Below, one piece after another: positions 1,077 to 41,547 of a stretch of 64,000 bases of DNA. Source of the DNA: a virus (Duplodnaviria; Caudoviricetes); IMG/VR virus record IMGVR_UViG_3300013126_000031, positions 205 through 64,204 of that record; one strand, 5' to 3'. How positions within the stretch are numbered: position 1 is the first letter of the stretch; each line of letters opens with the position of its first letter. A program made the position numbers and the translations under genes. A model generated the notes under the pieces. It had not been told where the DNA came from. It searched no databases and worked only from the letters and a program-made list of their open reading frames with translations.

Positions 1077-1203
1077 CAAGATTGCCTTTCTTTACATGCT
1101 ACCATTACACCACACGCCCTACCTCTGTTCGGACATGCTGGGATTCGAACCCAGACCCCTTGTTATCCATACAATTTTTAAGTTAAATTGCTGAAACAAT
1201 CTT
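1077..1203 (-). ncRNA. YrlA/Y-RNA-like permuted tRNA mimic (CWGCAA-stem family, copy A)
   Basis: Order: closing stem AAGATTGTT, CAGCAA, T-arm CTGGG-TTCGAAT-CCCAG, acceptor hairpin CATGTCC/GGGCGTG closed by a loop, D-arm, closing strand GGCAATCTT. Confidence 0.75.
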
Positions 1204-1246
1204 TTAATTACTCTAGTTAAGGAGCAGAGGACTCCAATATTGAGGT

Positions 1247-1294
1247 CAAGATTACCTTTTTTCATACGTGCTCTACCCACTGAGCTACGGTACC
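1247..1294 (-). ncRNA. 3' half of a second Y-RNA-like element
   Basis: GGTACCG + D-arm TAGCTCAGTGGGTAGAGC + AAAGGTAATCTTG, collinear with the 3' half of 1077-1203; no T-arm partner nearby. Confidence 0.55.
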
Positions 1295-1302
1295 ATATTT
1301 TG

Positions 1303-1374
1303 TAGCCCCACCTAGAATCGAACTAGGAATTAATCTTTAGAAGAGATTTGTTATATCCATTTAACTATGGAGCC
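1303..1374 (-). tRNA. tRNA-Arg(TCT)
   Basis: cloverleaf, AATCT-CT-TCT-AA-AGATT. Confidence 0.9.
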
Positions 1375-1384
1375 ATTTTATATG

Positions 1385-1458
1385 TGGTCCATGTAGGACT
1401 CGAACCTACGACCTTCTCGTTATGAGCGAGCTGCTCTAACCAACTGAGCTAAAGGACC
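1385..1458 (-). tRNA. tRNA-Met/Ile2(CAT)
   Basis: cloverleaf, CTCG-CT-CAT-AA-CGAG, paired G1-C72 (elongator type). Confidence 0.9.
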
Positions 1459-1462
1459 ATAT

Positions 1463-1638
1463 GTAACCGAAGATAGTTTTATCGGGAATCTGGGGCTGTA
1501 TCACTACAGTGCTTCACACGCCATTAGAGAGTCGGGTTGTTACATCAATACAGTTATGTTAGATTGAAGACCTATCCTTAGTGTGTACCCTTGCGACACG
1601 TCTCTCCACGTCTACTATCCTACGCTTTTTTCGGTTAC
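1463..1638. ncRNA. structured RNA candidate
   Basis: GTAACCGAA...TTCGGTTAC terminal inverted repeat, GC-richer than flanks, internal hairpins, no ORF. Confidence 0.45.
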
Positions 1639-1647
1639 TATTTTTTT

Positions 1648-2109
1648 TTAGATTACTTCAATGTAATCACATTTAGCAAATACTTTACCTAACCCTTGGA
1701 TTTTAGTTAAAGATTTTTCTGTTAATGTTCTTTTGTAAACATGGTCGTTATCAATCACTCTTTCAAAAGCGTTTGCACCATAAAAAAGTTTACCATTAAT
1801 CAATGTTTCGTTGTTCTCTGTTAAACGATTGTACAATTGAGATGTCAATTCGTTTTTCTTAATAACAGCAACTTTAGTAAAATTGATTGTTAACTTTGTG
1901 TTAGACTTAACACTAGGTTTTGTAATTTTGTTAGCTTTAGTAACATCAGACTTTAAAAAATCATTTGATACTTCACCTTTTCTTTTCATTGCTGCTAACA
2001 CACCAGCAAAAGTCATTGTAGGCACACCTAATTTAGTAGCCATTTCAGCGTTAGTTAATTTGTCCCCTTTTTTAAGGATGAACGATTTGATTTGTTTAGA
2101 ACTTTTCAT
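1648..2109 (-). CDS. hypothetical protein, possible N-terminal HTH
   Basis: ORF; LTNAEMATKLGV resembles an HTH; start placed at MKSSK downstream of the promoter. Confidence 0.65.
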   Translation of the reverse strand: MKSSKQIKSFILKKGDKLTNAEMATKLGVPTMTFAGVLAAMKRKGEVSNDFLKSDVTKANKITKPSVKSNTKLTINFTKVAVIKKNELTSQLYNRLTENNETLINGKLFYGANAFERVIDNDHVYKRTLTEKSLTKIQGLGKVFAKCDYIEVI

Positions 2110-2135
2110 ATTTATTTTTGTTTTTAAATTTAACA

Positions 2136-2169
2136 TTGCAAATGTACTAACTATTTTTTATAGTTGCAA
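2136..2169 (-). promoter_or_regulatory. Bacteroidota-type promoter (TTG...TACATTTG), near-identical to that of the DUF2828 gene
   Basis: 30/34 nt identical to 41514-41547. Confidence 0.7.
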
Positions 2170-2374
2170 ATTTTTTTTAACATTTTTTTTTAATCTAAAT
2201 AAATGTCATGATATACAATAGCATATGCATTAATCATCGCACCTATTTCAAAATAATAATTAAACATAGCCTTACTACGTGTATGTTCTAACATACTGAT
2301 TACATAATCGGCAAGAATCTGTAATACTTTTATTTTAAGTTCTTTTTTCATAATACAAATGTACAATTAAAATT

Positions 2375-2554
2375 TTACTTTTTCAAATCTTCTCTTAAAT
2401 TTTTATTAGCTTTTGTGTGTGCTGGGTTGAAAGGGCAATGTCTACAACCGCTTCCGCAGCATATCCCTCTTTTTTTAAGATAATGTTCTGTGTATATAAT
2501 TTTACCTTTTTCCAAGTAATAATCAATACCTTCTTCAAAACTAAATTTTTCCAT
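2375..2554 (-). CDS. small Cys-rich protein (DUF5522-like)
   Basis: MEKFSFEEGIDYY...RGICCGSGCRHCPF; ATG just after tRNA-Ala. Confidence 0.7.
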   Translation of the reverse strand: MEKFSFEEGIDYYLEKGKIIYTEHYLKKRGICCGSGCRHCPFNPAHTKANKNLREDLKK

Positions 2555-2555
2555 G

Positions 2556-2629
2556 TGGAGTAGATGGGAAACGAACCCACCACAGATTGCTTGCAAAGCA
2601 GTCTCGCCAGCCTTGGTACATGCTACCCC
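2556..2629 (-). tRNA. tRNA-Ala(TGC)
   Basis: TT-TGC-AA loop; G3:U70 Ala identity pair. Confidence 0.85.
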
Positions 2630-2635
2630 AATTAG

Positions 2636-2707
2636 CGGTCCCGAAGGGAATCGAACCCTCATCTTCTGATAGACAGTCAGACATCGTAGCCATTGGACCA
2701 CGGGACC
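2636..2707 (-). tRNA. tRNA-Asp(GTC)
   Basis: TCTGA-CT-GTC-TA-TCAGA, G73. Confidence 0.92.
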
Positions 2708-2711
2708 AAAT

Positions 2712-2854
2712 AAAACATTAAGTTACACAATTTGTCCTACACCAAACTCAATACTTCGAACAAATCCCTTCAACTAACTAATCGTTTGGTTCTTTCGTTA
2801 GTCTCCCCTATTTAAGGGTTAGAAGCCTACCAGTCTTACCTCACTTAATGTTTT
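2712..2854. ncRNA. structured RNA candidate between tRNA-Glu and tRNA-Asp
   Basis: 12-bp terminal inverted repeat AAAACATTAAGT/ACTTAATGTTTT fills the spacer. Confidence 0.45.
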
Positions 2855-2855
2855 G

Positions 2856-2929
2856 TCACCCGTATGGGATTCGAACCCATGCTCTTCTCCGTGAAAGGGA
2901 GACGACTTAAACCGCTTGTCCAACGGGCG
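2856..2929 (-). tRNA. tRNA-Glu(TTC)
   Basis: TCTCC-CT-TTC-AC-GGAGA. Confidence 0.92.
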
Positions 2930-2935
2930 TTACTT

Positions 2936-3011
2936 TGGTGGGACGGGAGGGATTCGAACCCCCGACACTCGCATCTTCAGTGCGATGCTCTACCAACTGA
3001 GCTACCGTCCC
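2936..3011 (-). tRNA. tRNA-Phe(GAA)
   Basis: TCGCA-CT-GAA-GA-TGCGA, encoded CCA. Confidence 0.95.
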
Positions 3012-3072
3012 ATTTTGTTAATACAAATGTATGAACTATTTTTTAATTATCCAAATTATTTTGTATTTTTTT

Positions 3073-3714
3073 TTAATTAATTTCTTTTAACCATAAATTA
3101 TAAGGATAAAAAGCTTCCATATATTTTATATAACCACTTTCTTTATTTCTAATCTTACTTTCCCATGAGTTATACTTTATCGTATAATACCATAACTCTT
3201 GTCTAGTCCAATTTAATTTATTCTCCACATATTTTGCAACTTGATATCCAGTTCTATCAGCACCATGTGTGCAATGTATTAAAACATGTCCGTTTTGTAA
3301 TAGTGGTTGTATTTGATTTAATGATTCAACATAACCCTTTCCTTTTACATAACCTAAATGTGCATTAACCCAAACATATTTAACACCCATGCTTTCAACT
3401 AAGTGTTTTTCTTGCTCTGGTGATACGTTTGTAGTTTCTTTAGCATTCATTCTTATGACGGTTTTAATATCATACGTTTTCAAAATCGCTTCCATTTGTT
3501 TTAAAGATGGTTGCGAACTTCTAAAAACATAATTACCCCCAGGCACCGTATCAAAGTTTTTCGGTAAATTAGTTATCCTAACAAAATGATAAGTAGTATC
3601 TTTTATTTCCACTTTAACAACTTTGGTAGTATCAACCAATTCTACTTTTTTATCAACAGATTGACTAGAGCATGCTGTTGAAATCAATAACCCAATAAAA
3701 ATAAATTTCTTCAT
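3073..3714 (-). CDS. lipoprotein Cys-based tyrosine/dual-specificity phosphatase
   Basis: HCTHGADRTG (CX5R) motif, FRSSQP motif, lipobox LISTAC. Confidence 0.8.
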   Translation of the reverse strand: MKKFIFIGLLISTACSSQSVDKKVELVDTTKVVKVEIKDTTYHFVRITNLPKNFDTVPGGNYVFRSSQPSLKQMEAILKTYDIKTVIRMNAKETTNVSPEQEKHLVESMGVKYVWVNAHLGYVKGKGYVESLNQIQPLLQNGHVLIHCTHGADRTGYQVAKYVENKLNWTRQELWYYTIKYNSWESKIRNKESGYIKYMEAFYPYNLWLKEIN

Positions 3715-3795
3715 AATCTTAAATTGTTTATACAAATGTAATAACAATTTTTTAATTATCCAAATTTTTTAACTAATATTTCAAAGAACTTAAAT

Positions 3796-3825
3796 AAAAA
3801 AAGGTTGGCGTTTCGGCCAACCTTT
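3796..3825 (-). terminator. attenuator terminator 1
   Basis: AAAGGTTGGC-CGAAAC-GCCAACCTTT followed by U-tract. Confidence 0.85.
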
Positions 3826-3849
3826 AAATCAATATCGTTAAACAGTTTG

Positions 3850-3939
3850 TTAACTTTTGACATGAGTTGACCTTCCTAGGCTAAAATCGGCCTCGGCTGC
3901 AAAGAAATCAAACTCAAATATGTTATTAACTGTTTTCAT
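3850..3939 (-). CDS. leader peptide 1 MKTVNNIFEFDFFAAEADFSLGRSTHVKS (F/E/D/A sensing)
   Basis: 29-aa ORF between promoter and terminator; 12 consecutive F/E/D/A codons. Confidence 0.85.
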   Translation of the reverse strand: MKTVNNIFEFDFFAAEADFSLGRSTHVKS

Positions 3940-3988
3940 CGTTTTTATATTAAATATATTGTTTTTTCTAAAAATTCAATTTATACTA

Positions 3989-4019
3989 CAAATGTACAAC
4001 ATTATTTTTAATTTGTCAA
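3989..4019 (-). promoter_or_regulatory. promoter of attenuator cassette 1
   Basis: TTGACA-N17-TACATTTG, conserved at 5985-6015 and 26160-26190. Confidence 0.75.
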
Positions 4020-4037
4020 GTTTTTTTTGTTTTTTTT

Positions 4038-4688
4038 TTATTTTCTTATACCACTTAAAAAATCTTTAGCATTGTTAAAACCAATAATACCAATTATTTG
4101 TTTTAAAAAACTATTTTTATCTTTAACATTACTTTCTTTATATTTGTTGATGAGATTCACAACTTCTTGTTCTTTTTCTCTACCCAACTTTGTTTTATAA
4201 TCAGCAACATCTGCCATGTTCATAAAATAATACCCATTTATAAAATCAGCATCTTTTAATATTTCATTTGTTGACCTAACTTTTACATCAGCATATCTAC
4301 CACTAGCTTTTTCTGGTGACCAAAGTGTGAATGCTTCAATACTACCATCTTGTGTCGGTCTGTAAATACCACCATTTTTCAATTCTTCTGTTAATCCAGC
4401 TTGAACCCAAAGTTCTTCGTTAGGTATTACAATATCTAAATCTCCAATAGTTCCAGTCAACCCAAATGCATCTCTTAATTTAGGATACAAATACAATCTA
4501 GCTGAACCAGCAATAAAATAAACTCTATCTTTTGGGTTTATTTTAAATTTTTCAAATATAATTTTGTTAGCTTGAGATAACAATGAGTCTAAACCACCAC
4601 CATCAACTTCATCTAACAAATCTTCACTTACTTGAGACCAAAATTCTTTTAAAAAGAATTCTTTAATGTAAATCTCACTTAATCTCAT
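4038..4688 (-). CDS. putative pol-beta-type nucleotidyltransferase
   Basis: hAGS...GDLDIVI motif. Confidence 0.55.
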   Translation of the reverse strand: MRLSEIYIKEFFLKEFWSQVSEDLLDEVDGGGLDSLLSQANKIIFEKFKINPKDRVYFIAGSARLYLYPKLRDAFGLTGTIGDLDIVIPNEELWVQAGLTEELKNGGIYRPTQDGSIEAFTLWSPEKASGRYADVKVRSTNEILKDADFINGYYFMNMADVADYKTKLGREKEQEVVNLINKYKESNVKDKNSFLKQIIGIIGFNNAKDFLSGIRK

Positions 4689-4998
4689 ACTTTTTTAATT
4701 TTTTTAACACTTCTTTATTGTAAACGTTTTCCAATGTTAATGGTTTAAATGATAAATACATTTGTTTAGGGCTTGGTCCTTTCAAAAACAAAAAGTTATA
4801 TGCTGACCATTCACTAGTTAAATAATATCCATTCTCATTTTTCATCTTATCAAGCAAACACTCTGGATTTTCATTGATATATTTCCAATCATATTTGTTA
4901 CACATTTTACTAACTTTACTTAAAAAGATTCTTACTTCAAAGTATCTTGCTAGTAATAAAAAACAAATACCCCACATTACCATCGTTAACGTTATCAT
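4675..4998 (-). CDS. hypothetical protein with N-terminal TM
   Basis: ORF, start MITLTMVMWG. Confidence 0.6.
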   Translation of the reverse strand: MITLTMVMWGICFLLLARYFEVRIFLSKVSKMCNKYDWKYINENPECLLDKMKNENGYYLTSEWSAYNFLFLKGPSPKQMYLSFKPLTLENVYNKEVLKKLKKYEIK

Positions 4999-5072
4999 AT
5001 TATAAATATTAGTGTTAAAACAAATGTAAGAATAATGTTTTAAATATCCAAATAAAAGACATTTTTTTTTTG

Positions 5073-5146
5073 TATCTTCGGTGAGATTCGAACTCACACT
5101 GTATAGGGTCTAAGCCTATTGCCTCTGCCAGTTGGGCTACGAAGAC
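5073..5146 (-). tRNA. tRNA-Leu(TAG), short variable arm
   Basis: ATAGG-CT-TAG-AC-CCTAT. Confidence 0.88.
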
Positions 5147-5149
5147 ATT

Positions 5150-5237
5150 TGGTAGGGCGAGAGGGAGTCGAACCCTCACGGGACTAAGCCCAAGGGATTT
5201 TAAGTCCCTCATGTACTACCAATTTCATCACCGCCCC
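5150..5237 (-). tRNA. tRNA-Leu(TAA)
   Basis: AGGGA-CT-TAA-AA-TCCCT, long variable arm, CCA. Confidence 0.93.
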
Positions 5238-5261
5238 ATATTATAATATCAAAGAACTTTG

Positions 5262-5334
5262 TAGGGGTAGAGGGATTCGAACCCCCGACCTATTGCATGT
5301 AAGGCAATTGCTGCTACCGCTGAGCTATACCCCT
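5262..5334 (-). tRNA. tRNA-Val(TAC)
   Basis: ATTGC-CT-TAC-AT-GCAAT. Confidence 0.92.
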
Positions 5335-5724
5335 ATTTTTTATCATTAATCATTTTACTCGCACAGCACTCATATATTTCTGCTATGTTTTTCTTTCTTG
5401 GATTTGTGCCTGGTACGTCTAGTTCATCTAGCAACCCACTATCAATCCATTTCTGAATTATTTCTTCACGTCTTTTTTTTCATATGTACAATATTTTCAG
5501 ATATTGTATGACCTAAATTTTCCATGTTCTTATTTTTACTTTCTTTTAGTCTTTAACAACTTTCTTATTATTTTACCCCAATCAAAGTTATTTTTAACTT
5601 CGTTTACTTTTGGTCTAAGGTATTTTCTAGACCCTTCCATTTTGCCAGTGATAACTGTCCTAGTTACCATTTTTTCTTTGTTTGTTTCCATACTCTTTTT
5701 TTACTTTTAACATTATTATTTTTG

Positions 5725-5798
5725 AGCACCGAGTAGGATTCGAACCTACGAATAACGGTTTTGCAGACCGCCCCCTTAAACCACTTGAGCATCGGTGC
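5725..5798 (-). tRNA. tRNA-Cys(GCA)
   Basis: GCGGT-CT-GCA-AA-ACCGT, U73. Confidence 0.92.
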
Positions 5799-5805
5799 AT
5801 AAATT

Positions 5806-5835
5806 AAAAAAGGCCCATCGTTTCTGATGAGCCTT
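5806..5835 (-). terminator. attenuator terminator 2
   Basis: AAGGCTCATC-AGAAAC-GATGGGCCTT + U-tract, just upstream of tRNA-Cys. Confidence 0.85.
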
Positions 5836-5861
5836 CATATGTAGTTATAATTAGTTAAACT

Positions 5862-5936
5862 TTAACATACGTAGCCCACCTTGTCTACCACTAGTAAACA
5901 TAACAATAAGGCAATTTGTGTGTATAAAGTTTTCAT
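5862..5936 (-). CDS. leader peptide 2 MKTLYTQIALLLCLLVVDKVGYVC (L/C/V sensing)
   Basis: 24-aa ORF between promoter and terminator; run TTA TTG TTA TGT TTA CTA GTG GTA. Confidence 0.85.
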   Translation of the reverse strand: MKTLYTQIALLLCLLVVDKVGYVC

Positions 5937-5984
5937 AGTTTTTGCTTTTTATAATTAAATATATCTATTTCTTTAAATGTTATA

Positions 5985-6015
5985 CAAATGTACAACATTT
6001 TTTTTGATTTGTCAA
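5985..6015 (-). promoter_or_regulatory. promoter of attenuator cassette 2
   Basis: TTGACA-N17-TACATTTG. Confidence 0.75.
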
Positions 6016-6058
6016 GTTTTTTTAATTTTTTTTTAAATATTTATATAAAAAAAGTATC

Positions 6059-6685
6059 ATGATTAAAGATTTATTAAAAAAATACCTTTTAGAATATATT
6101 GATGAAGCTGCACCGATGGGTCACTTTAATGACCGTGTTAGTGAAGTTGTCGAAGACATTATAGGTGTAACAATACCACCTAATGTGTATGTTGCTGGTG
6201 CAACAAAAGAACAACAAGATGCTTGGGTTATTTCTCAAATTCAATCTAAACTTAAAGAAAAAATAAACGCTGTGATAGCAACTGATTTCCCAATAGGTAA
6301 GGGTAATAAAGAAGGTATTTGCGTTTTAGTTCCTCTAGGTATGGTTAAAGTACAACCATTAAAAGGTAATCCAGTTACAGTTACAGTTACTGCTAAACGT
6401 AAGGAGGATGTTAGAAGTGGTATTTCTTATTACATCGGAATATATGATAACCGTATGCCAAGTTTAGTTTTGGCTGACCCTACTATTGCAGCAAACAGAA
6501 GTCCACATTTACAGCTTCAAGCACATATTACCAACAACATTAAAAATGGTTGGCCAGTAAACAAAGAACGTTCTTATGTTGATAAATCATTCATGGACAA
6601 CATTGTTGTAAACATGGCTGATTTTAAAATAACTAAAAAAGAACCAGGAGCCGAAGCTCCTTCTTCAACCGTAGATATTGCTTAA
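6059..6685 (+). CDS. hypothetical protein
   Basis: 208-aa ORF preceded by ATATTTATA. Confidence 0.75.
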   Translation: MIKDLLKKYLLEYIDEAAPMGHFNDRVSEVVEDIIGVTIPPNVYVAGATKEQQDAWVISQIQSKLKEKINAVIATDFPIGKGNKEGICVLVPLGMVKVQPLKGNPVTVTVTAKRKEDVRSGISYYIGIYDNRMPSLVLADPTIAANRSPHLQLQAHITNNIKNGWPVNKERSYVDKSFMDNIVVNMADFKITKKEPGAEAPSSTVDIA

Positions 6686-6939
6686 AACTCAATATAAACA
6701 TTTATTACGTTTTCTTTTGTTTTAACAGTTGCTTGTTTAACATCGCCAGTGATGTTATCATTAAGTATTGTTTGTAATCGTTCAATATCAAACTCAATAT
6801 CTAATCTTGAGTTAAAATCAATCATTGCATCGATTGGTTCGTTAGTTGTTGTAGGTGTGATGCTAGATAAATCAAAACTAGTAACACCAAATTCAGCAAC
6901 TAAAGATAAATAAAGACCAGTTAAATTTACATTTTTCAT
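6682..6939 (-). CDS. hypothetical protein
   Basis: ORF with TACATTTG promoter upstream. Confidence 0.6.
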   Translation of the reverse strand: MKNVNLTGLYLSLVAEFGVTSFDLSSITPTTTNEPIDAMIDFNSRLDIEFDIERLQTILNDNITGDVKQATVKTKENVINVYIEF

Positions 6940-7046
6940 AATGTTATTTTTTAATTATATTACAAATGTAGAAAAACTTTTTTAATCTACCAAATAATTT
7001 CAATAAAATATTTACACATAAATAAAAAATACCTATAATTACAATT

Positions 7047-7170
7047 ATGGGATATGTTTATTTATTATTTTGTGTCGGTTTAGATGGTAGTGAAGGTTAT
7101 AAGATTGTCAAAAGTATGTAAAGGTTTGAAGAAAACATCTGGTGGTTTTAAATGGGAATATTATGAATAA
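7047..7170 (+). pseudogene. remnant: GIY-YIG N-terminus + NUMOD1-like fragment
   Basis: MGYVYLLFCVGLDGSEGYKI, then in another frame LSKVCKGLKKTSGGFKWEY. Confidence 0.55.
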
Positions 7171-7495
7171 AGGTTTTGTTTATCTACTATTAGTTATTAA
7201 TGATAATGGGTGTGAAAACTATAAAATAGGTGTGACTAAACGTAATATCGATAAACGAATTAGTGAATTACAGACTGGTAATGATTCTAAAATTCAACTT
7301 CTTAAACATTATCAATCTGAAAACTATCTAAAAGTTGAGAAATGGTTACATAGGAAATATAATTCATTTAAAACAGAATCAAATAACGAATGGTTTGCTT
7401 TGCTACCAGAACATGTTATTTCATTTCTTAAAGATTGTAAGGAAGCTGACGATAATATCAACTTCCTACTTGAAAACAATCCTTTTTATAAATGA
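7163..7495 (+). CDS. GIY-YIG nuclease (T5orf172/MUG113-like)
   Basis: GFVY...YKIGVTK...RISELQTGN...EWF. Confidence 0.85.
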   Translation: MNKGFVYLLLVINDNGCENYKIGVTKRNIDKRISELQTGNDSKIQLLKHYQSENYLKVEKWLHRKYNSFKTESNNEWFALLPEHVISFLKDCKEADDNINFLLENNPFYK

Positions 7496-8679: not shown

Positions 8680-8680
8680 A

Positions 8681-26159: not shown

Positions 26160-26190
26160 CAAATGTACAAACTATTTTTATATTTGTCAA
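26160..26190 (-). promoter_or_regulatory. promoter of attenuator cassette 3
   Basis: TTGACA-N17-TACATTTG. Confidence 0.75.
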
Positions 26191-32024: not shown

Positions 32025-32051
32025 AAAAAAGCCATCATTTAGATGGCTTTT
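32025..32051 (-). terminator. terminator of the fMet/Y-like RNA cluster
   Basis: AAAAGCCATC-TAAAT-GATGGCTTTTTT. Confidence 0.8.
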
Positions 32052-32059: not shown

Positions 32060-32137
32060 CAGAATAGTCTTTGTGGAATTGAACCACTAATCAAATTTGC
32101 AATTTAATATTAACCTTAGTTTTGCTGGAACTATTCT
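32060..32137 (-). ncRNA. CWGCAA-stem RNA copy B with anticodon-like loop (GCA) and T-arm
   Basis: AGAATAGTT-CCAGCAA...TTAAA-TTGCAAA-TTTGA...GTGG-TTCAATT-CCAC...GACTATTCT. Confidence 0.7.
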
Positions 32138-32143
32138 TTTTAG

Positions 32144-32345: not shown

Positions 32346-32435
32346 ATGTTGTATCCTAGGTTGGCAGTGAGCCAACTATTAAATAGTTGCTTGGCACCCA
32401 TTTAATAAGGACAATTCCTCTAGAATAAGTTTGGC

Positions 32436-32499
32436 CAGAATCTTCTTTTTTACTTTTGTTTTCTGAATAATAGTATAAATAAATTGCTGAATAGATTCT
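32436..32499 (-). ncRNA. CWGCAA-stem RNA copy C (minimal)
   Basis: AGAATCT-ATTCAGCAA...AGATTCT-G. Confidence 0.6.
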
Positions 32500-32519
32500 T
32501 TCTGCCAATAAGTTTATCT

Positions 32520-32779
32520 CAAGATGGTTTTCTTAATATTTTTCATCCCAGCGGATTAACCCTTTTTACGTCTTCGGCTTAGCTTTGGCGAGAGTCTACT
32601 GTTCTTCAACTACATCCTACTCGCACCTATTGGGGTGGTTGTGACGTGATTTTTGTTTTAGTTGGAAACCTAACCAATTTTGTTTAATTCCGTTGTTAAA
32701 GCATGTTTTCACATTTCTAACATACCAATTAAACGAATCATAGTTGTATCTGTTTTTGTTTGGTTGCAGAACCCATCTT
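32520..32779 (-). ncRNA. CWGCAA-stem RNA copy D (long)
   Basis: AAGATGG-GTTCTGCAA...~240 nt...CCATCTT-G. Confidence 0.6.
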
Positions 32780-32894
32780 TTTTAGATAATATTTTTAATA
32801 AGTTAAAGAACGTTGTTTTTAATTATATTACAAATGTACAAATAAATATCTCGTTTGTCAAGTAAAAACCAAAATATTTTTAAAAAAAAATAAA

Positions 32895-33179: not shown

Positions 33180-33767
33180 ATGGGATGCGGAATATATAAA
33201 ATTATTAACAACGTTAATAATAAATTATATATTGGTAGTTCTATGAATATTAAATCTAGATTTAGTAAGCATAAATCATTATTAAAAAATAACAAACATG
33301 ATAATGATTATTTACAAAATTCTTTTAATAAATATGGTATAGATAATTTTTCATTTGAAGTTATTGAATTTTGTGAAGTTAGTGAATTAATTGATAAGGA
33401 AAATTATTATATCAATTTTTATAAAAGTAATAATCTAAACTTAGGTTATAATTTGGCAACTGTTAATGAATTTAGAAGAAATAATTATAATAAGGAAGTT
33501 AAAATTAAAAACTCTAAAATAAACTTATTAAAAAACGGTAATTTTACTAATTTTAAAGCAATTAATTTAACAACAAATGAAGAAATAATATTTGATTCAT
33601 TAGTCACCGCTGCCGATTATTTAGCTAACAAAAATTTTTCAAAAGGTAAATTATCTAACATAAGACAAAAGATATCTTATTGTTTAAGAGGAAAGAAAGT
33701 TAATAATGGTTCTAAAGGTTCAATTAGAAAAACCGCCTACAATCATTTGTGGGTTATAATAAAATAA
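33180..33767 (+). mobile_element. GIY-YIG homing endonuclease
   Basis: GIYKI...YIGSS...R..H...E, GYN; NUMOD1-like C-terminus. Confidence 0.88.
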
Positions 33768-33878: not shown

Positions 33879-33896
33879 TGTGTTGTTAAAGAAATT

Positions 33897-33921
33897 AAAA
33901 GGGGCTTATTGAGCCCCTTTT
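33897..33921. terminator. bidirectional terminator
   Basis: AAAAGGGGCT-TATTG-AGCCCCTTTT between convergent genes. Confidence 0.8.
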
Positions 33922-34263: not shown

Positions 34264-34378
34264 AGTTTTACTTTTAATATAAATATATCAAAAATAAAAA
34301 ACCCCCAGTAAAGCGACTTACTGAGGGTCATAATTTCATTTCTCGTGGCGTGTTGTTTGAGAATGAATCTGTTAGAAG

Positions 34379-34732
34379 TGGAGATAATGGGATTCGAACC
34401 CATGTGTTGAATATTCTTCGATGCTTTCTACATGTTTAGGTCATGATTTTCTAACCATCCGAAACTTTCCTTAATTTTATAGTGGTTTTGGTTCCACTAG
34501 TATTCATACCATAGATGGTTTACCATCATCTCGTTAGTGGATTACCACTATCAGCAGTGTTAGGCAACTGCAAGCTCTCCGTTAGAAACGAATGTCGCTT
34601 CGTCAAGGAAATTTTCTGATACGATTAAATCGTTGTCATTTCTTGTTCTAATAGTATTTTTTAAAGTGCTTCCAATCTAGCACTACATGCTTACTACCTA
34701 CGACTATACCCAGTCAATACCGTCATATCCCC
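34379..34732 (-). ncRNA. ssrA: tmRNA
   Basis: GGGGATA/TATCTCCA acceptor with G3:U70, TTGAC 5' motif, GCATGTAG helix, T-arm, tag ORF ending ...GELAVA-stop. Confidence 0.92.
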
Positions 34733-34993: not shown

Positions 34994-35710
34994 TTATTTT
35001 TTCTTTTTTGTTGTTATGATATGGTCAACAATACCATAAGCCAATGCTTCATCAGAATTTAACCATAAATCACGACTTGCATCTTCCATAACTTGTTTAG
35101 GGTCTTTATCAGTGTATTTACCTAACAACCCGAATAATAACTCGTTATATTTTTCACCCTCAGCAATTGAACGTCTGATGTCTTGGATATTACCTTGAGC
35201 ACCAGTCGATACTTGGTGTAGCATAACTCTACTAAAACGCAGCGTATAACGTTTACCTTTTGTTCCAGCACCTAATAATATACTCCCCATACTTGCAGCC
35301 ATACCAGTATTGATAGTGATGCAATCAGATGTGATGTAGTCCATTACGTCAACAATTGATAACCCAGATTTTACTGAACCACCTGGACTATCGACATGTA
35401 ATGTGATGTCTTTTCTTTCTAAATTATCTAAGAACATCAACTGTGCTTGTACAACTGTACTCATTCTGTCGTTAACTGGTCCAGCTAACCATATAATTCT
35501 ATCCATCATCATTCTGGAGAAAATATCCATCTGTGTCACTCTTAATTCTCTTTCTTCAAGAATGTATGGTGTTAATGACGCTGAAGGAACCATAAGTGAT
35601 GCTTGAGAACCGTAAAGTTTTTCTTGCATTTGTTCCCATTGGTAAAAATCCGTTGAAGAAATCCCCATATGCTTAATAGCATAATCTTTAAATTCGTTAG
35701 TTAAATTCAT
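34994..35710 (-). CDS. clpP: ATP-dependent Clp protease proteolytic subunit
   Basis: DIFSR, SPGGSV, GMAASMG, MLHQ, RDLWL. Confidence 0.95.
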   Translation of the reverse strand: MNLTNEFKDYAIKHMGISSTDFYQWEQMQEKLYGSQASLMVPSASLTPYILEERELRVTQMDIFSRMMMDRIIWLAGPVNDRMSTVVQAQLMFLDNLERKDITLHVDSPGGSVKSGLSIVDVMDYITSDCITINTGMAASMGSILLGAGTKGKRYTLRFSRVMLHQVSTGAQGNIQDIRRSIAEGEKYNELLFGLLGKYTDKDPKQVMEDASRDLWLNSDEALAYGIVDHIITTKKKK

Positions 35711-35711
35711 A

Positions 35712-35966
35712 TTATTGTATTTTTCCATCTTTTTTAATAACACACTCACCAGACATCATTAAAAATTCATATCTGTTTAATGTTTCTAATTTATCATCAG
35801 CTTCTGTCAATGCTGCTAAAGCTTCTTCAGCGTTTTTATAATAATCATCAGTTGAATGGTCACCAATACCTACTGAATGGTGAGATAACAATTGAAGAGT
35901 TAATAACGCTTTTTGTCTTTGAGCTTCTATCGATGCTCTTAACATTTGTTTTAATGGTTTATTCAT
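35712..35966 (-). CDS. hypothetical protein
   Basis: VGIGDHS motif. Confidence 0.7.
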   Translation of the reverse strand: MNKPLKQMLRASIEAQRQKALLTLQLLSHHSVGIGDHSTDDYYKNAEEALAALTEADDKLETLNRYEFLMMSGECVIKKDGKIQ

Positions 35967-35969
35967 ATC

Positions 35970-36266
35970 TTATAAAAAACTACCTCTAATAAATACTGGT
36001 GTGTTTTCACCCAACCAAGCACCTTTAATATTATACTCGAAATACTCAATCGCCATTATATACTTTTCACTTTCAATTTCATCTTCAGTCATACCTTCAG
36101 TATCTTCCAATTCCATTTGTTTTGATAGTATATCAACTATTTTTTCTTCGTCATAGGCGACAACTGGGCCGAGGTTAATTCTCTCGGCCATGCCTATGAT
36201 AGCACTATCAAATCCATCAATTAATAATGCTTCTTCATTTATTTCAGCTATCTCTTCTCTAGTCAT
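35970..36266 (-). CDS. hypothetical phage protein
   Basis: DGFDSAIIG...EYFEYNIKGAWLGENTP. Confidence 0.75.
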   Translation of the reverse strand: MTREEIAEINEEALLIDGFDSAIIGMAERINLGPVVAYDEEKIVDILSKQMELEDTEGMTEDEIESEKYIMAIEYFEYNIKGAWLGENTPVFIRGSFL

Positions 36267-36718
36267 TAGTATGCTTTTACTTTTTTACTCGTTGCGCTAG
36301 AAGCCTCATCTTCAGCTTGTTTTGCTGCATCATAAAGAGACTTAATAGATTCTCTTAATGTGTTCCATTTCTCGAATGTATGTTTAGATAACACACCACT
36401 GAAAGTGATAACATCTGCTTTTGTGATTACTAACTTATCGTTTTCGGTATCATAATGAATACTAGCTAATGATTCTTCAACTACAATACGTCTTTGTTCG
36501 TCAGTTAATTGTTCAAAGATTTGTTCATTAAGAACGATAATGATGTCATCACCAGTTCTATACTTCAATAATTCGTTAGCCTTGTTAACTTTGAACAATT
36601 CTTTTGCTCTGTTATTAACTAATACTGTGATGTTAACGTATTGGTCTAAACCAACAGCTTTAATTACTTCGTTGTACAAATCCAACGTGTCTTCAAATGG
36701 TTCTTCAAATTTTGCCAT
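36266..36718 (-). CDS. phage metallopeptidase-like protein lacking HExxH
   Basis: IIVLN..FEQL...VVEESLASI. Confidence 0.55.
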   Translation of the reverse strand: MAKFEEPFEDTLDLYNEVIKAVGLDQYVNITVLVNNRAKELFKVNKANELLKYRTGDDIIIVLNEQIFEQLTDEQRRIVVEESLASIHYDTENDKLVITKADVITFSGVLSKHTFEKWNTLRESIKSLYDAAKQAEDEASSATSKKVKAY

Positions 36719-36763
36719 ATTACTTTTCTTTTTATTTATTAAACATTTATTTATACAAATATA

Positions 36764-37813
36764 CTAATTTGTTTTCTCGGTTTCAACCTTTTTATCTAAT
36801 TTTTCTTTTAAATTGATGATAAGTGCTTTAGTGTCATCATCTATTTTTTTAGGTATATCAATTCCTAATGTTATTAGAATATCACCTCTATTTTCCCTAC
36901 CATATTGTCTAGTTCCTTTAAACGGTATTCTAAGGTTAGAACCAACATCACTATGTTCTGGTATTGATATTCTTATTTTAGAACCTTCGATTGTATCTAT
37001 TTCTATTTTATCACCTAATATTAATTGTGGGTAACTTAATTTCAACGTCATTTTTAAATCAGCACCAGACCTTGTAAATATATCATGTTTTGTTTCATGA
37101 ACTCTTATGTGTAAATCACCTTCCTTACCACCTTTAACCCCATGACCTTTACCTTGCATAATAAAAGTCATACCATCCATCACTCCAGATGGTACTTCAA
37201 CTTCAACGGTTTCTGTGTTATCAACAACACCGTTTCCATTACATGTTTTACAAGCTTTGGTATAAGATTTACCTAACCCATCACAAGCTTGACAAGTTAC
37301 CATTTGTTGAATAATACCCATAGGTGTTTTTATAACATTTATTGAAACACCAGAACCGTTACAAACACTACATTGTGTCACATCTTCACCGCCATGTCCA
37401 TCACACGTCTTACAACTAACTTTTCTAGTGTATTTGTATGTTTTTTTAACACCGTTAAACGTTTCCTCTAATGTTAATTTTAAAACTAATGACATATCGG
37501 AACCAACCCTAATTTGGGGTTCGCTATGGTATCCACCAAAACCACCACCGAACCCATTTCCAAAAGGGTTTCTAAAACCACCAAAAGGGTTTCCACCTTG
37601 CTGTGGACCAGAGTGACCAAATCTATCATAATTAGCCTTCTTATCGCTATCTGATAATGTTTCGTATGCTTCTGATATTTCCTTGAATTTTTGCTCATCA
37701 CCACCTTTATCTGGGTGATATTCTTTTGCTAGTTTTCTATATGCTTTTTTTATTTCGTCTGGACTAGCACCTTTCTTGATACCTAATACATCGTAATAAT
37801 CCCTTTTACTCAT
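36764..37813 (-). CDS. dnaJ: DnaJ chaperone
   Basis: J-domain HPD, G/F region, four CxxCxGxG. Confidence 0.95.
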
Positions 37814-37863
37814 ATTAATCTTTATTTTTTTACAATATTACGTATTTTTATTATTAATTTCAA

Positions 37864-38523
37864 GTGTTTATGATTTATAGAGTGATTTTAACATCAAATG
37901 GGGAATATAAGAAAACGTTATACAAATGCAAAACAAAAGAATCTGTTTTCTTAAAATACCATAAGTTGAGAGAAGATAATGATATTTTATTTCCAAAAAA
38001 GTTTTTAAACACAAATGGTATTAGACCAGTGAGATATGAGATATGTGTTATTAAACCAACAGAAGAAACTGATACATTTAGATTATTGAGGGATGAGTAT
38101 GGTAAACTATACACTGAAAAACCTCTAGGTGATTGGACTATATTAGCTTCTGATGAATATAATCTAGAGGAAACGTTTTATATCTATGGTCATGAATCAG
38201 AAGAACGTCCAACGATTAGAGAAGTTGTCAAAAGACTTATGATTGGTGCCCATTCAAAGAAAATGGTTAAACAAATTATTGTTGTTCATAATAAATTATT
38301 AATTTACAGTGAAGACCAATTTGATATGATAATTTGTAAAAACTTAGAAGAAGCTCAAAGACTACACCATACTTTGGCTAGAATAGCCAAAAAACAAAAG
38401 ATAAAAAGTTTGTTATTCATGGGTACAGCCACACCAGCCAATATCGGTAGAATGTATGATGTCATACATGAAGAAACTGGTTGGCCATACACAAAAATAA
38501 GAAGGACTAGTACTAGGCCTTAA
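37864..38523 (+). CDS. hypothetical protein
   Basis: 219-aa ORF. Confidence 0.7.
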   Translation: MFMIYRVILTSNGEYKKTLYKCKTKESVFLKYHKLREDNDILFPKKFLNTNGIRPVRYEICVIKPTEETDTFRLLRDEYGKLYTEKPLGDWTILASDEYNLEETFYIYGHESEERPTIREVVKRLMIGAHSKKMVKQIIVVHNKLLIYSEDQFDMIICKNLEEAQRLHHTLARIAKKQKIKSLLFMGTATPANIGRMYDVIHEETGWPYTKIRRTSTRP

Positions 38524-39712
38524 TCACGTGTTTCAGTCACAAAATCAATAAGGATTTCACCAATATTTTCATCAACACCTTTTTGATAAACAAATACTTT
38601 ATTTTCTGGTAGCGTTGCATCTAAATTTACTGGATACCTAAGACTTACAAATGTTACACCTTCTTTTTCTGTGTTAAATGGTATTTCCTTTATCAAGATA
38701 TCAAATAATGTAGGGTGAACTGATATACCAATTTCAGCATTTTCATCTAACACCTTTATTTGTATTGCTAAAAAATTAACTTTAGTAACAAATGTACTGT
38801 TCCAATCTTTTTGCATAGTATCACGGTTTGGGATTATATCTAAATAATCTTTCCAACCGTAGTAATTCCATTTTTCCTTCCATTTAGTTTCCATACTTAA
38901 TCCAAATATAGTTTTTCTAAGTTTCTAACCAAAACATCTAATCTAGCATTATTTCTATCAATGATTTCTTGTTTGTCTTGTGGTATGTTGAAAACATACT
39001 CTGATTTTATTTTAGATATTTCTCTTTGTAGTCGGTCACTTTCTCTGATATAATCATCATATAACCTTGCTTTGTCTTCTCTAGTCATTACATTTACATT
39101 TACCGCCTGGATTATTACCACAGTCACATGGTTTTTCAATTACTTCTTCAATTTCTATTTCTTCGTCTTCTAAACCTAAATCCTCACCAACAGAAAAGCT
39201 TTTCTTTATATCTTCAACCATTTCGTTTATTTTAGCCATATCTGGTTCAGACACTATCATTGGATTGATACACTCAACTCTTTCCTCCCCTTGTGTTGGG
39301 ATAAAGAAAGCCATTGCGTTTGCATTTTTATGTGCTAACATATTATTTACTGAATCAGCAAATGGTTGAATTATTTCTTTGATTTTCATCATTTCAGCGT
39401 CCAAATAGAACACAATTATTAATGGGTAATTTTCTTTCATTGTTTAATTTTTAAGTATTCCAAAAATGTTACTTCTTGAATTATTTCTTTCTTATCTATT
39501 TTACTAAGTGTTTCGTTATTAATAAAATGTTCAATAATAAGTTCGTTGATTCTAGCTTCTTTGTTTTGTTCACCATATTCAGTAAACCCATGTAAAACAA
39601 TATCACCACCACCTTGATTTAAAATTAAATAAATTAGATACTCTGAAACTAGTTTATCACCAAACATACTACTTTTTAATTTGTCGATTTCTTTTACAAC
39701 AATTCTTTTCAT
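38520..39712 (-). CDS. four small hypothetical proteins (38520-38894, 38897-39088, 39081-39440, 39437-39712)
   Basis: abutting ORFs. Confidence 0.6.
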
Positions 39713-39792
39713 TCTATATTCTTTAAATATGTGTTATTTTTAAATGTTAATTAAGTTTATCGATTTTTTTTAATATAGTAAAGTATAAAAAC

Positions 39793-39821
39793 AAAAAAAG
39801 GACCCAAAATGAGTCCTTTTT
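39793..39821 (-). terminator. terminator after CWGCAA RNA copy E
   Basis: AAAAAGGACTC-ATTTT-GGGTCCTTTTTTT. Confidence 0.8.
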
Positions 39822-39836
39822 AATTGGTGTTTGTAA

Positions 39837-39994
39837 CAAAATGCGGAGGTAGTTTCAATTCTAAACCTTATAAAGAACCCCAGTTTTAGTGACGTGGTTC
39901 ACAATTAAGCCACATCTGGTTTTGATAGACTGGAAACTATGCTGTCTGAACTATATTAATTGTATAAATTTTTTTAAGTTGCAGAAAGCATTTT
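39837..39994 (-). ncRNA. CWGCAA-stem RNA copy E, directly downstream of the DUF2828 gene
   Basis: AAAATGC-TTTCTGCAA...GCATTTT-G; internal TAGTTTC/GAAACTA stem. Confidence 0.65.
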
Positions 39995-40041
39995 TCTATA
40001 CAAACATTTGAAGAAAATTGGGGCTTTTACACCCCAACTTC

Positions 40042-41481
40042 TTAGATTGTTACTGGTGAGTAACGCTCAGAGTTGATGACACTCAACATCATTGATATTG
40101 GTGATAAATCTCTTCCAGCTAACAAGTTTGTTAATAAAGAAGGTGAAAAACCACTAACTAAACAAGTACCATTCGTGTCAAAGTGTACTGGCTTGTTGTT
40201 ATCGCCTCTTGATTGGATGTTCCAATATACAACTTTTGGTGTTTTGTATCCAGCCTCAGCGTACATTGACTCAATCATTTTTTGAGCAGTTGGGTTCCAA
40301 CCTCTACCTCTTACAGCAGAATTGAACTCCATGTCAGACAAGATTAAAATCATTGTCGGCATCTCTGATTGTGGCACGTTAGACTCTTTAGCTTTTTTAA
40401 GGATTAACTTAAATACAGCTTCCAAGTTTGTTGACATATCCCAATCAGCTCTTTGAAGTTGGTTGTAACGCTCGTTCAAGCTACCTTTCAAGATTTGTAA
40501 TTTTGGACTTTCAGAGAAAGTCACAAAAGCATCTTGGAAAGGACCTACGTTTCTTTCAGAGATGTATAATCCCAAAGAGATTGCTACATCCATACAAGTA
40601 ACGTTAGGGTTACCACCAGCTGGGCATGACATTGACCCAGAAACGTCAACTACTGGTAATACATACTCTTCGTTAGTAGCCATGTAGTTTGGTAATGCTT
40701 TCCATTGCTCGTTAGCACCTCTAGCATTACCATACTTCAAGTTTTTTACAATGTCATATGGGTACACCGCTCCAGCGTTAATCTTAGTTTCACCTTTTTC
40801 AAGAGAAGCTAAATAAGCTTGGAATCTCTCTAAGTCGTTCTTAGAGAACGCTTTCATGTAGTCACTCATTGCTTTTGATGGCAATTTAGAGTACTCAATC
40901 TTAGAGTATTCTCTAGCACACATTAATTGCTCAACTGTGTTAGAGTTTTCTGACAATAACTTACGGTATTGTTTTGGTGTAAGACCCAAATGTTTTCTCA
41001 ACACATTTGCCCATCTTTTTTTCTCACGGTTAGATACGTTTGGACGTGGCATCCATTTAGCTGCTAATCCATCTTTTCTATCTAACGCATCAGAGATTAA
41101 GTTCAACGCTTTAGTTTGCAATGGTGTACCAACAAGAGTTAGTAAATCATCCCAACGACCATACTCGTTGAACAAATGTAAGTTCTTACCTAAAGTCTCA
41201 GTACGGTTTTCAGCCAAGTACGCAACAATATCTCTAAAGATTTGTCTTTCTCCAGCTCCACCTCTGATATCACGAGCCCAAAATAACAATTTCATTGCAT
41301 GTAACGGGTTCTCAGCAAATGCTTTCGTAAAAGCATTGATAAGTCTTTGCTTATCTTGACCTCTCATCGCACCAATTTGGAAGAATAAATCTACACAGTG
41401 GTTCAAAGATGATGAGTTTGTTGCCATTCCGTTTTCAGTTAACGAATCTGCTGTTTGCATTGCTTTTAAAAATGTGCTCAT
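40042..41481 (-). CDS. DUF2828-family TROVE/Ro60-like vWA protein
   Basis: TENG, RDIRGGAGER, YGRWDDL, AKWMPR, vWA MIDAS DVSGSM, SDMEF, YWN, SGFS. Confidence 0.85.
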   Translation of the reverse strand: MSTFLKAMQTADSLTENGMATNSSSLNHCVDLFFQIGAMRGQDKQRLINAFTKAFAENPLHAMKLLFWARDIRGGAGERQIFRDIVAYLAENRTETLGKNLHLFNEYGRWDDLLTLVGTPLQTKALNLISDALDRKDGLAAKWMPRPNVSNREKKRWANVLRKHLGLTPKQYRKLLSENSNTVEQLMCAREYSKIEYSKLPSKAMSDYMKAFSKNDLERFQAYLASLEKGETKINAGAVYPYDIVKNLKYGNARGANEQWKALPNYMATNEEYVLPVVDVSGSMSCPAGGNPNVTCMDVAISLGLYISERNVGPFQDAFVTFSESPKLQILKGSLNERYNQLQRADWDMSTNLEAVFKLILKKAKESNVPQSEMPTMILILSDMEFNSAVRGRGWNPTAQKMIESMYAEAGYKTPKVVYWNIQSRGDNNKPVHFDTNGTCLVSGFSPSLLTNLLAGRDLSPISMMLSVINSERYSPVTI

Positions 41482-41513
41482 AAATTTTAGTTTTTAAGAT
41501 TAATAATTAAGTG

Positions 41514-41547
41514 TTGCAAATGTACTAACTATTTTTTGTTTTTGCAA
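41514..41547 (-). promoter_or_regulatory. promoter of the DUF2828 gene
   Basis: TTGCAA...TACATTTG; near-identical to 2136-2169. Confidence 0.7.

Follow-up and report, generated by a model that had tools for sequence, protein, structure and literature searches.

Five elements on the minus strand of a 64,000-nucleotide (nt) stretch of viral DNA are probably small noncoding RNA genes, here called CAGCAA-stem RNAs, and probably specify the partner RNAs of a Ro60-like DUF2828/vWA protein encoded on the same stretch. The stretch, referred to below as the window, spans positions 205 to 64,204 of the IMG/VR record IMGVR_UViG_3300013126_000031 and covers that contig of 64,204 bases almost wholly. The elements belong to an RNA family with a clear structure signal, modular cargo, and tight genomic coupling to DUF2828. 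A preliminary description of the window had proposed a parallel Ro-like ribonucleoprotein (RNP) with a distinct binding motif and interchangeable modules. Its distribution, its distinct signature, and its modular cargo held up, whereas the promoter link that it had included proved generic to the phage, and the RNP itself is a proposal that we develop below.

Five elements share a terminal stem and motif but carry different cargo

The five minus-strand elements that had been described at 1077-1203 (A), 32060-32137 (B), 32436-32499 (C), 32520-32779 (D), and 39837-39994 (E) are present at these positions. All five have a terminal stem in which seven of seven pairs are Watson-Crick, then three bases and the motif CWGCAA, and at the other end the 3' strand and a final G, so that the shared stem, motif, and TG end of the preliminary description are borne out. 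Their cargo does differ, and overall lengths run from 64 to 260 nt. Element C (64 nt) is the minimal form, in which stem and CAGCAA are followed by an A/U-rich linker and an A-rich 3' strand. Element B (78 nt) has the stem, CAGCAA, and a T-arm-like hairpin. Element A (127 nt) lies in a tRNA cluster and reads stem, CAGCAA, a small hairpin, and then T-arm, closed acceptor-like hairpin, and D-arm, which is the permuted, YrlA-like layout that had been ascribed to one of the elements. The remaining two have CUGCAA after the terminal stem: element D (260 nt) encloses a large cargo, and element E (158 nt) carries a conserved 3' module, in which the loop of a hairpin is able to pair with CYCC further downstream. 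Element E is also the copy that had been placed directly downstream of the DUF2828 gene; it begins 47 nt past the stop codon and lies between that codon and the terminator.

The sequence TYCWGCAA occurs ten times on the minus strand of the window, and the occurrences that are intergenic and have a perfect stem are just the five elements. A relaxed scan of both strands found no sixth copy that combined a perfect stem, the three-base spacing, and the usual purine-rich stem start. Two additional stems with seven of seven Watson-Crick pairs were seen, one at 47338-47714 on the plus strand, with a variant motif ending in T and without the usual stem start, and one at 39857-39643 on the minus strand, with a four-base spacing and the same T-ending variant motif. 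The remaining matches of the relaxed scan all depend on G-U pairs. A candidate sixth copy near 46164 was ruled out, having no stem partner. Folding of the single sequences was unexceptional, with z values of -1.1 to -2.0 for A, B, D, and E and +0.07 for C, and the structural evidence is therefore comparative. No Rfam family reached its gathering score for any element, and searches at E ≤ 10 over A, B to D, and E gave sub-threshold matches only.

An RNA family with an invariant core

Related loci yielded 281 distinct elements with lengths of 31 to 418 nt (median, 66). The 5' consensus, with frequencies in percent, is A92 G83 A57 A76 U90 N N, then N U96 W, then C A81 G C A A. The interior consists of an A/U-rich stretch followed by an A-rich stretch, and the 3' consensus is N N A90 U77 Y C83 U93 G100. 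All seven stem pairs have changed on both sides among 28 short copies; that count is not independent, because the copies were selected for pairing, and the independent tests of the family are the strand control, the shuffle control, and location. At the outer five stem positions, likeness is greater among the copies of one genome (0.72) than across genomes (0.49), and the inner two pairs are near random (0.37 within and 0.28 between), a pattern that may reflect a genome-specific reader of the outer stem.

The cargo falls into several classes. The minimal class, exemplified by element C, measures 40 to 70 nt and has no tRNA part, and a second class, to which element B belongs, has a single T-arm-like hairpin. 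The permuted tRNA-like class of element A (T-arm, closed acceptor, D-arm) recurs in Felixounavirus, in mycobacteriophage LilDestine, in Enterococcus phage Bill, and on several IMG/VR contigs. The T-arm precedes the D-arm in all nine related elements of other phages, with compensatory changes in three T-stem pairs. Another class of about 99 nt has D-arm, anticodon arm, and T-arm in the normal order. Among the larger domains, the gene-adjacent class of element E shares a 3' module with a covarying helix. A T-loop-like motif is present in 35 of the 281 elements.

The RNA signature tracks DUF2828

We sampled 62 IMG/VR loci, each encoding a DUF2828 homolog of 40 to 99% identity, and counted CWGCAA motifs that had a 7-bp stem partner (at most one G-U pair) followed by G. 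In these loci and the window together, the sense strand had 615 motifs, of which 138 qualified; the antisense strand had 37 qualifying motifs among 638, and shuffled sequence had 21 among 394. A sense-strand element lay outside the gene in 57 of the 62 loci. It lay within 700 nt of the DUF2828 gene in 45, and the antisense control gave 2. The position of the adjacent copy follows the clade: homologs of 60 to 99% identity have it downstream of the gene, and those of 43 to 50% identity have two or three copies upstream, the last of which ends about 12 nt ahead of the start codon.

For the reverse search, one stem class was written as a pattern, which matched 74 IMG/VR stretches. Of these, 46 are on DUF2828 contigs, and the gene is found in 711 of 50,697 deposited phage genomes overall, including those of the widely used Felix O1-like, Listeria P100/A511-like, KVP40-like, Campylobacter, and cluster L mycobacteriophages. 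The 46 comprise 29 matches with the gene in the fetched DNA, 12 on contigs known to carry one (one of which shares its contig with a DUF2828-positive locus of the fetched set), and 5 of the 9 larger contigs that were searched whole. The signature thus tracks DUF2828 in both directions, from protein to RNA and from RNA to protein, and the independent distribution that the preliminary description had named as fatal to its proposal was not what we saw. Both the existence of the RNA family and its link with DUF2828 are firmly supported.

A covariance model of stem and motif had likewise been suggested as a check on co-occurrence with DUF2828. The model that we built from 28 short copies (R1) was run on whole phage records and, at E ≤ 0.01, gave 11 matches distributed over all five DUF2828-positive genomes. 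None of the five PF11443-negative genomes (T4, T5, Bxz1, SPO1, and phiKZ) had a match at this threshold, and their top score was 17.9 bits. In the window, element C is the top R1 match at 49.8 bits but is part of the training set, and element B, outside that set, scores 27.8 bits. Two of the genomes were also outside the training set. Phage PX29 (Angelvirus) has matches of 43.7 and 31.0 bits, which share their strand with the tRNA cluster that they head and lie about 10 kb from the DUF2828 gene. Vibrio phage 1.081.O (Schizotequatrovirus) has one of 37.9 bits within the tRNA region, on the strand of the gene and opposite to the annotated tRNAs, again about 10 kb from the gene.

Elements are present in all nine groups of cultured phages that we examined; they adjoin the gene in seven, and in the other two they lie about 10 kb from it, in or close to tRNA clusters. 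The gene-adjacent cases are Felixounavirus AYO145A, Listeria phage LP-124 (Pecentumvirus), and mycobacteriophage LilDestine (Faithunavirus), together with four in which the elements abut the gene, namely, Campylobacter phage CP39, Staphylococcus phage S-CoN_Ph12, Enterococcus phage Bill, and Synechococcus phage BUCT-ZZ01 (Fletchervirus, Sextaecvirus, Schiekvirus, and a Kyanoviridae phage). The Campylobacter, Listeria, Enterococcus, and Synechococcus phages have elements in the leader position. In LP-124, genes for RtcB and an RNA ligase lie near the DUF2828 gene. In S-CoN_Ph12, three elements follow the DUF2828 gene directly, and the annotated "hypothetical protein" CDS0026 (L151, 8806-8895), which covers one of them, is probably a spurious open reading frame (ORF).

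The mirror image of these genomes is Bxz1, which has a true TROVE gene (PF05731, 77.9 bits) and a YrlA-like match of 32.5 bits 190 nt upstream of it. Bxz1 thus pairs TROVE with a YrlA-like RNA and has no CAGCAA-stem RNA, whereas the DUF2828 phages show the opposite, and this supports a private recognition code.

The DUF2828 protein resembles Ro60 in its vWA domain

The DUF2828 gene (40042-41481, minus strand) encodes a protein of 479 amino acids that matches Pfam DUF2828 (132.5 bits) and DUF7788, a vWA family (170.4 bits), with a weak match to VWA_2, and belongs to PHROG 850, "RNA-binding protein." The residues of the MIDAS (metal ion-dependent adhesion site), D279, S281, S283, T351, and D383, are invariant in 23 sequences, and the motif R70-D71-x-R73-G74-G75-x-G77-x-R79 is invariant as well. 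The family is large, with 8,844 representative clusters at E ≤ 0.001. Some metagenomic homologs have DUF2828/DUF7788 fused to KH domains (among P0007, P0081, P0254, P0005, and P0010), and the domains also occur in Naegleria gruberi, land plants, Sordariomycete fungi, and one dinoflagellate.

The preliminary description had called the protein TROVE/Ro60-like. The second half of that label has support, in that the vWA domain with its MIDAS aligns to phage Ro60, but membership in TROVE does not follow from the sequence, in which PF05731 finds no match. Two Ro60 structures from Thermus phage, 9L5Y and 9KOP, were matched by the family profile over the MIDAS stretch only, with E values of 0.011 to 0.012 (9L5Y, 0.011), and hhalign placed the same stretch on the Ro protein of Bxz1 with a probability of 63% over 42 columns. 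One eukaryotic member matches vWA_Ro60 at an E value of 0.0068. In the ESM Atlas, with the protein's own families excluded, the 30 nearest named clusters were all TROVE/vWA_Ro60 (0.91 to 0.93, with about 166 of 256 features shared), a likeness that by the tool's own calibration is a lead and not proof. SEA-PHAGES records name a homolog "Ro-like RNA binding protein."

Two reports bear on what such proteins do. The PhageMaP preprint (PMC11482910) describes Bas63 gp130 as structurally like Ro60, encoded just upstream of tRNA genes, and able to counter the Ppl defense, and it mentions that some Bas63 "tRNAs" might be Y RNAs. We take gp130 to be the Felixounavirus DUF2828 homolog because the Felixounavirus gene order matches; the preprint would thereby link this presumed homolog to escape from Ppl. 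The Ro-like protein gp53 of phage LeBron is described as toxic on overproduction (PMC13148394).

CAGCAA-stem RNAs and Y RNAs share a plan but not a signature

As in Ro60, which combines TROVE and vWA domains, a putatively helical domain of the DUF2828 protein precedes the vWA domain with its MIDAS site. As described for Ro60 and Y RNAs (PMC4201824), the partner RNA genes lie within a few kilobases on the same strand, with RNA repair genes nearby, and, as in Y RNA and YrlA, the 5' and 3' ends of each RNA form a closing stem that is joined to a variable module (PMC4201824). The module of element A, and not those of elements B to E, corresponds to the permuted tRNA of YrlA (RF02553), with its T-arm, closed acceptor, and D-arm.

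The differences are equally plain. The DUF2828 protein, unlike Ro60, has no Pfam TROVE match. The Ro-binding RNA motif is described as GGUCCGA/GNCGAA within a bulged terminal helix, whereas the CAGCAA-stem RNAs have N-U-W-CAGCAA after a regular 7-bp stem in place of GNCGAA in a bulged helix (PMC4201824). Unlike YrlA, they are present in multiple copies per genome, some of them minimal and without cargo. The YrlA cutoff of 69 bits was reached by none of them, all scores being 21.7 bits or less; element A gave no YrlA match at E ≤ 10, and the 21.7 bits belong to its counterpart in LilDestine. By strict membership, then, the protein and the RNAs fall outside the TROVE, YrlA, and Class I families, the last of which is discussed below. 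Thermus phage phiLo likewise encodes a Ro-type protein with its partner RNAs, Yrl1 and Yrl2, upstream (9KOP and 9L5Y; PMC12135203). Its Ro60 is reported to form a particle with the host PNPase, for which a counter-defense role was proposed (PMC12135203). In contrast to the DUF2828 protein, phiLo Ro60 belongs to the true TROVE proteins, and CGAA is the motif found in its RNAs. We found no prior description of CAGCAA-stem RNAs in the main texts of the open-access papers and preprints that our searches covered.

A proposed particle and the points that weigh against it

We strongly infer that the DUF2828 protein and the CAGCAA-stem RNAs form an RNA-protein particle, and we propose the following for its binding, processing, and role in RNA repair, quality control, or counter-defense. 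The module common to all the RNAs is a 7-bp helix closing the ends, with its outer five pairs partly conserved within a genome and its inner two free, plus N-U-W-C-A/U-G-C-A-A in single-stranded form on the 5' side, an A-rich strand facing it, and one unpaired 3' G. Closing stem, CAGCAA strand, and A-rich strand would together form a putative docking site for the DUF2828/DUF7788 protein, whose helical N-terminal domain and vWA domain with intact MIDAS would reproduce the Ro60 architecture. The variable inner part would be the working module, often a tRNA mimic and otherwise nothing or a larger structured domain, and a tRNA-mimic module could recruit or decoy tRNA-handling enzymes or tRNA-cutting defense nucleases. 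The RNAs would be made within tRNA operons or within the DUF2828 mRNA, in its 3' untranslated region (UTR) in the source phage and in its 5' leader in other clades, and would then be cut out. The tRNA mimicry, the nearby RNA ligases and RtcB, and the Ppl result together point to a putative role in tRNA repair, RNA quality control, or counter-defense.

Such a particle would extend the principle of Ro and Y RNAs, a docking stem with an exchangeable and often tRNA-mimicking module, to another protein family that has a recognition code of its own. The defined RNA signature gives the DUF2828 protein a testable ligand, and it accounts for unannotated gaps, and for at least one ORF that is probably spurious, next to the gene.

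In three freshwater studies, RNA-library contigs match relatives of elements D and C (window positions 32465-32698, minus strand) and are a weak hint that the RNAs exist as discrete species. The contigs all diverge at 32695-32698 and have in common the 3' two thirds of D, which we therefore regard as its conserved core. Each run contained only 4 to 9% of the sampled words, one of the four gave no match, and the contigs, being those of relatives, are uninformative on ends and strand.

A number of observations weigh against a DUF2828 particle. RNA libraries of this kind can contain DNA. Recent duplication or shared descent would produce the same within-genome likeness of the outer stem as a dedicated reader. 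Pfam TROVE (PF05731) did not match the window protein at E ≤ 1 or 23 phage and 11 eukaryotic members at E ≤ 10, it was absent from three DUF2828 phage genomes (the comparison, Bxz1, scoring 77.9 bits), and the N-terminal domain had no TROVE match by either Pfam or hhalign. No element was found within 700 nt of the gene in 17 of the 62 sampled loci, and 5 of the 62 had none in the available DNA; 3 of these 5 have little or no DNA downstream of the gene, and the other two (L008 and L042) have several kilobases on both sides. In the reverse search, 28 of the 74 pattern matches were not tied to a DUF2828 gene, although these do not count as negatives, since 4 were negative on whole contigs that are 15 to 38% complete, 23 were searched within the locus only, and 1 was not covered. 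Finally, the elements sit in tRNA operons, which makes a processing signal a live alternative.

That alternative is the main rival. It holds that the stem and CAGCAA are a processing or stability cassette read by a host or phage enzyme (RNase P, E, Y, or Z, the CCA-adding enzyme, or an RNA ligase) that frees or protects RNAs in tRNA operons, and that DUF2828 is a neighbor in the early or tRNA region; we judge it unlikely, though well ahead of the others. The elements do lie inside tRNA transcription units that run from one promoter to one terminator, a 7-bp helix followed by a single unpaired base at the 3' end recalls an acceptor stem and its discriminator base, and the source phage encodes a nucleotidyltransferase and an Rnl1-like ligase. 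The copies of PX29 and Vibrio phage 1.081.O, in or at tRNA regions some 10 kb from the gene, also suit a cassette. Against the idea, the signature is missing from tRNA-rich phages without DUF2828 (T4, T5, and Bxz1), and the core motif stays constant across hosts that differ in their RNases (Actinobacteria, Firmicutes, Proteobacteria, Campylobacter, and cyanobacteria). Nor would a cassette be expected to adjoin DUF2828 on one side or the other, as copies do in 45 of 62 loci, or to occur in genomes such as that of LilDestine, which show no tRNA in the stretch examined.

It is less probable still that the elements are mainly cis-regulatory, with the DUF2828 protein or another factor binding the leader or trailer of its own mRNA and the dispersed copies arising as by-products. 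Leader elements in the Campylobacter, Listeria, Enterococcus, and Synechococcus phages fit this reading, as do element E in the 3' UTR in the window and, in the clade of 43 to 50% identity, a minimal element of 38 to 40 nt that ends about 12 nt before the start codon. Such minimal elements lie at the ribosome-binding site in L050 (9952-9989), L051 (9949-9988), and L060 (9949-9988), a position that suggests autoregulation as a side function. However, most copies are far from the gene, elements A to D being 7 to 39 kb away with promoters of their own, and the elaborate tRNA-like cargo of many copies would be superfluous in a leader. Autoregulation is moreover compatible with a DUF2828 particle and may form part of it.

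A third reading, which we consider very improbable, takes the elements as decaying or rearranged tRNA genes or tandem-tRNA look-alikes that have no function of their own and owe their shared ends to duplication. A half-tRNA with a similar 3' end does lie beside element A at 1240-1300, the Rfam YrlA model weakly matches the junction of tRNA-Arg and this half at 20.5 bits, and Chen et al. caution that dimeric tRNAs can mimic YrlA (PMC4201824). Decay does not account for a minimal class without any tRNA part, for an invariant core and stems that covary across phages of different phyla, or for the conserved non-tRNA 3' module of element E with its compensatory changes. Chance, or a DNA-level signal such as a promoter, terminator, or repeat in AT-rich DNA, can be set aside despite a window G+C content of 30.6% and a match of the Rfam Dictyostelium model inside a coding gene of T4 (24.3 bits), given that the antisense and shuffle tests (138, 37, and 21 for sense, antisense, and shuffled) gave it no support, the strand is always that of the gene, the pairing is Watson-Crick with G-U tolerated, and a distance of 31 to 418 nt between the stem strands is impossible for a promoter or terminator.

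Resemblance to Dictyostelium Class I RNAs

The Rfam model of Dicty_Class_I_RNA (RF01414), for which amoeba sequences alone were used, can be aligned with element C from one end to the other, at 29.0 bits and an E value of 0.0036 in a 901-nt search. At E ≤ 1 in five DUF2828 phages, seven of its eight matches fall on R1 elements, with scores of 14.3 to 24.7 bits. The gathering cutoff of 41.5 bits is reached by none of the phage elements (14 to 29 bits).

Class I RNAs are described as having a short stem with an initial G, and in their single-stranded motif of 11 nt, T3, C6, C9, A10, and A11 are nearly invariant (PMC7919456). Judged by the Rfam consensus and that description, the phage elements resemble them in the 5' G, a stem of 6 to 7 bp, the conserved U, and a conserved single-stranded motif that follows the 5' strand and has CAGCAA as its core (PMC7919456). 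They are also alike in the A-rich 3' part, in ending with C-U-G, in a middle part that varies, in measuring about 60 nt (in the minimal phage class), and in the presence of many genes per genome (PMC7919456). Measured against the Class I motif, the phage elements have G at stem position 2 in 83%, the C, C, A, and A are invariant, and the U (96%) lies one base nearer the core. There are also clear differences. The phage RNAs have one base fewer between the conserved U and CAGCAA, and only their minimal class fits the 42 to 65 nt of Class I RNAs (element C has 64 nt, and the family median is 66). Class I genes have their own upstream promoter with a Dictyostelium upstream sequence element (DUSE), whereas the phage copies sit in operons.

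On this basis we raise the tentative and rather doubtful idea that the phage CAGCAA-stem RNAs and the dictyostelid Class I RNAs are the same kind of RNA, both being cognate ligands of DUF2828/vWA proteins, and that they represent a second Ro/Y-like lineage in phages and eukaryotes, whose tRNA-mimic cargo would, in phages, serve counter-defense or tRNA repair. To our knowledge, no mechanism for Class I RNAs has come to light since 2004, and the likeness offers a concrete handle on this long-standing orphan class. Homology is opposed by the sub-cutoff scores, by the one-base difference in spacing, by the T4 match to RF01414, which at 24.3 bits inside a coding gene is a chance match, and by the fact that the known direct binder of Class I RNAs in Dictyostelium is Rnp1A, a protein with an RNA recognition motif. 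The text of Kjellin et al. states that Class I RNAs were not found outside Dictyostelia, and the preprint version of that work mentions an uncharacterized partner, DDB_G0281243, from a pulldown with DdR-21. A dictyostelid DUF2828 protein was not found in three protein searches, which listed plants, fungi, and protists and do not thereby establish its absence. Ten of the 150 best representatives, picked for a composition of the AT-rich type, included Naegleria gruberi and no dictyostelid, with the same limit on what this says about absence.

Promoters and transcription units

The DUF2828 gene is preceded by a sigma-70-like promoter (41514-41547, minus strand) with TTGCAA, a 17-nt spacer, and TACATT, and the transcription unit of the gene and element E ends, as we read it, at a hairpin followed by a T run (39793-39820, minus strand). 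The RNA cluster at 32 kb runs from one promoter (32833-32861, minus strand; TTGACA, 17 nt, TACATT) to one intrinsic terminator (32027-32051, minus strand) and contains, in this order, element D, element C, two tRNA-Met genes, and element B. A third promoter of the same family (2136-2169, minus strand) precedes the ORF at 1648-2136 and the tRNA cluster with element A. The preliminary description had compared this last promoter with that of DUF2828, and the two do resemble each other, with an identity of 31 of 34 nt rather than the 30 of 34 given there. Five further copies with 8 or 9 mismatches lie at 26190, 12324, 6015, 3763, and 3054 (minus strand), so that the family as a whole has members at 41547, 32861, 26190, 12324, 6015, 3763, 3054, and 2169. 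Its form is TTGACA or TTGCAA, 17 nt, and TACATTTG, and it precedes tRNA and noncoding RNA clusters as well as several ORFs. The DUF2828 promoter is thus not specifically tied to the cluster of element A, because the promoter family is general in the source phage.

Source contig and neighboring genes

Close relatives in IMG/VR are on contigs of up to about 360 kb, from which we conclude that it is a fragment of a large phage. Nearly all genes of the window are on the minus strand. The window has 19 tRNA genes and one transfer-messenger RNA (tmRNA), and among its protein products are a nucleotidyltransferase, an RNA ligase of the Rnl1-like kind, a DNA ligase, an SbcC-like protein, RNase HII, ClpP, DnaJ, an FKBP isomerase, and a GIY-YIG endonuclease. 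The endonuclease ORF (33180-33767) adjoins the noncoding RNA cluster and is on the plus strand, unlike nearly all other genes. The phage-encoded tmRNA (34378-34732, minus strand) specifies a tag of 20 residues; Enterococcus phage Bill likewise has an annotated tmRNA near its DUF2828 gene.

Three further RNA-like features lie next to the elements. Directly after element A is a tRNA-like gene (988-1066, minus strand) with an 8-base anticodon loop, which ARAGORN lists as "anticodon ttta" and which scores 41.4 bits with the Rfam tRNA model; it may be a suppressor or frameshift-type tRNA. On the other side of element A, the sequence at 1240-1300 (minus strand) consists of a tRNA 5' half (acceptor strand and D-arm), an A-rich run, and a 3' end resembling that of element A, and this may represent a copy in decay or a tandem-tRNA look-alike. 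A cloverleaf-like RNA (32346-32435, minus strand) without the CAGCAA motif, located between element C and tRNA-Met, was not called as a tRNA by ARAGORN or Rfam. It has an 8-bp closing stem and three hairpins and folds with a minimum free energy of -28.7 kcal/mol (z of -5.3), which none of 200 shuffled sequences equaled.

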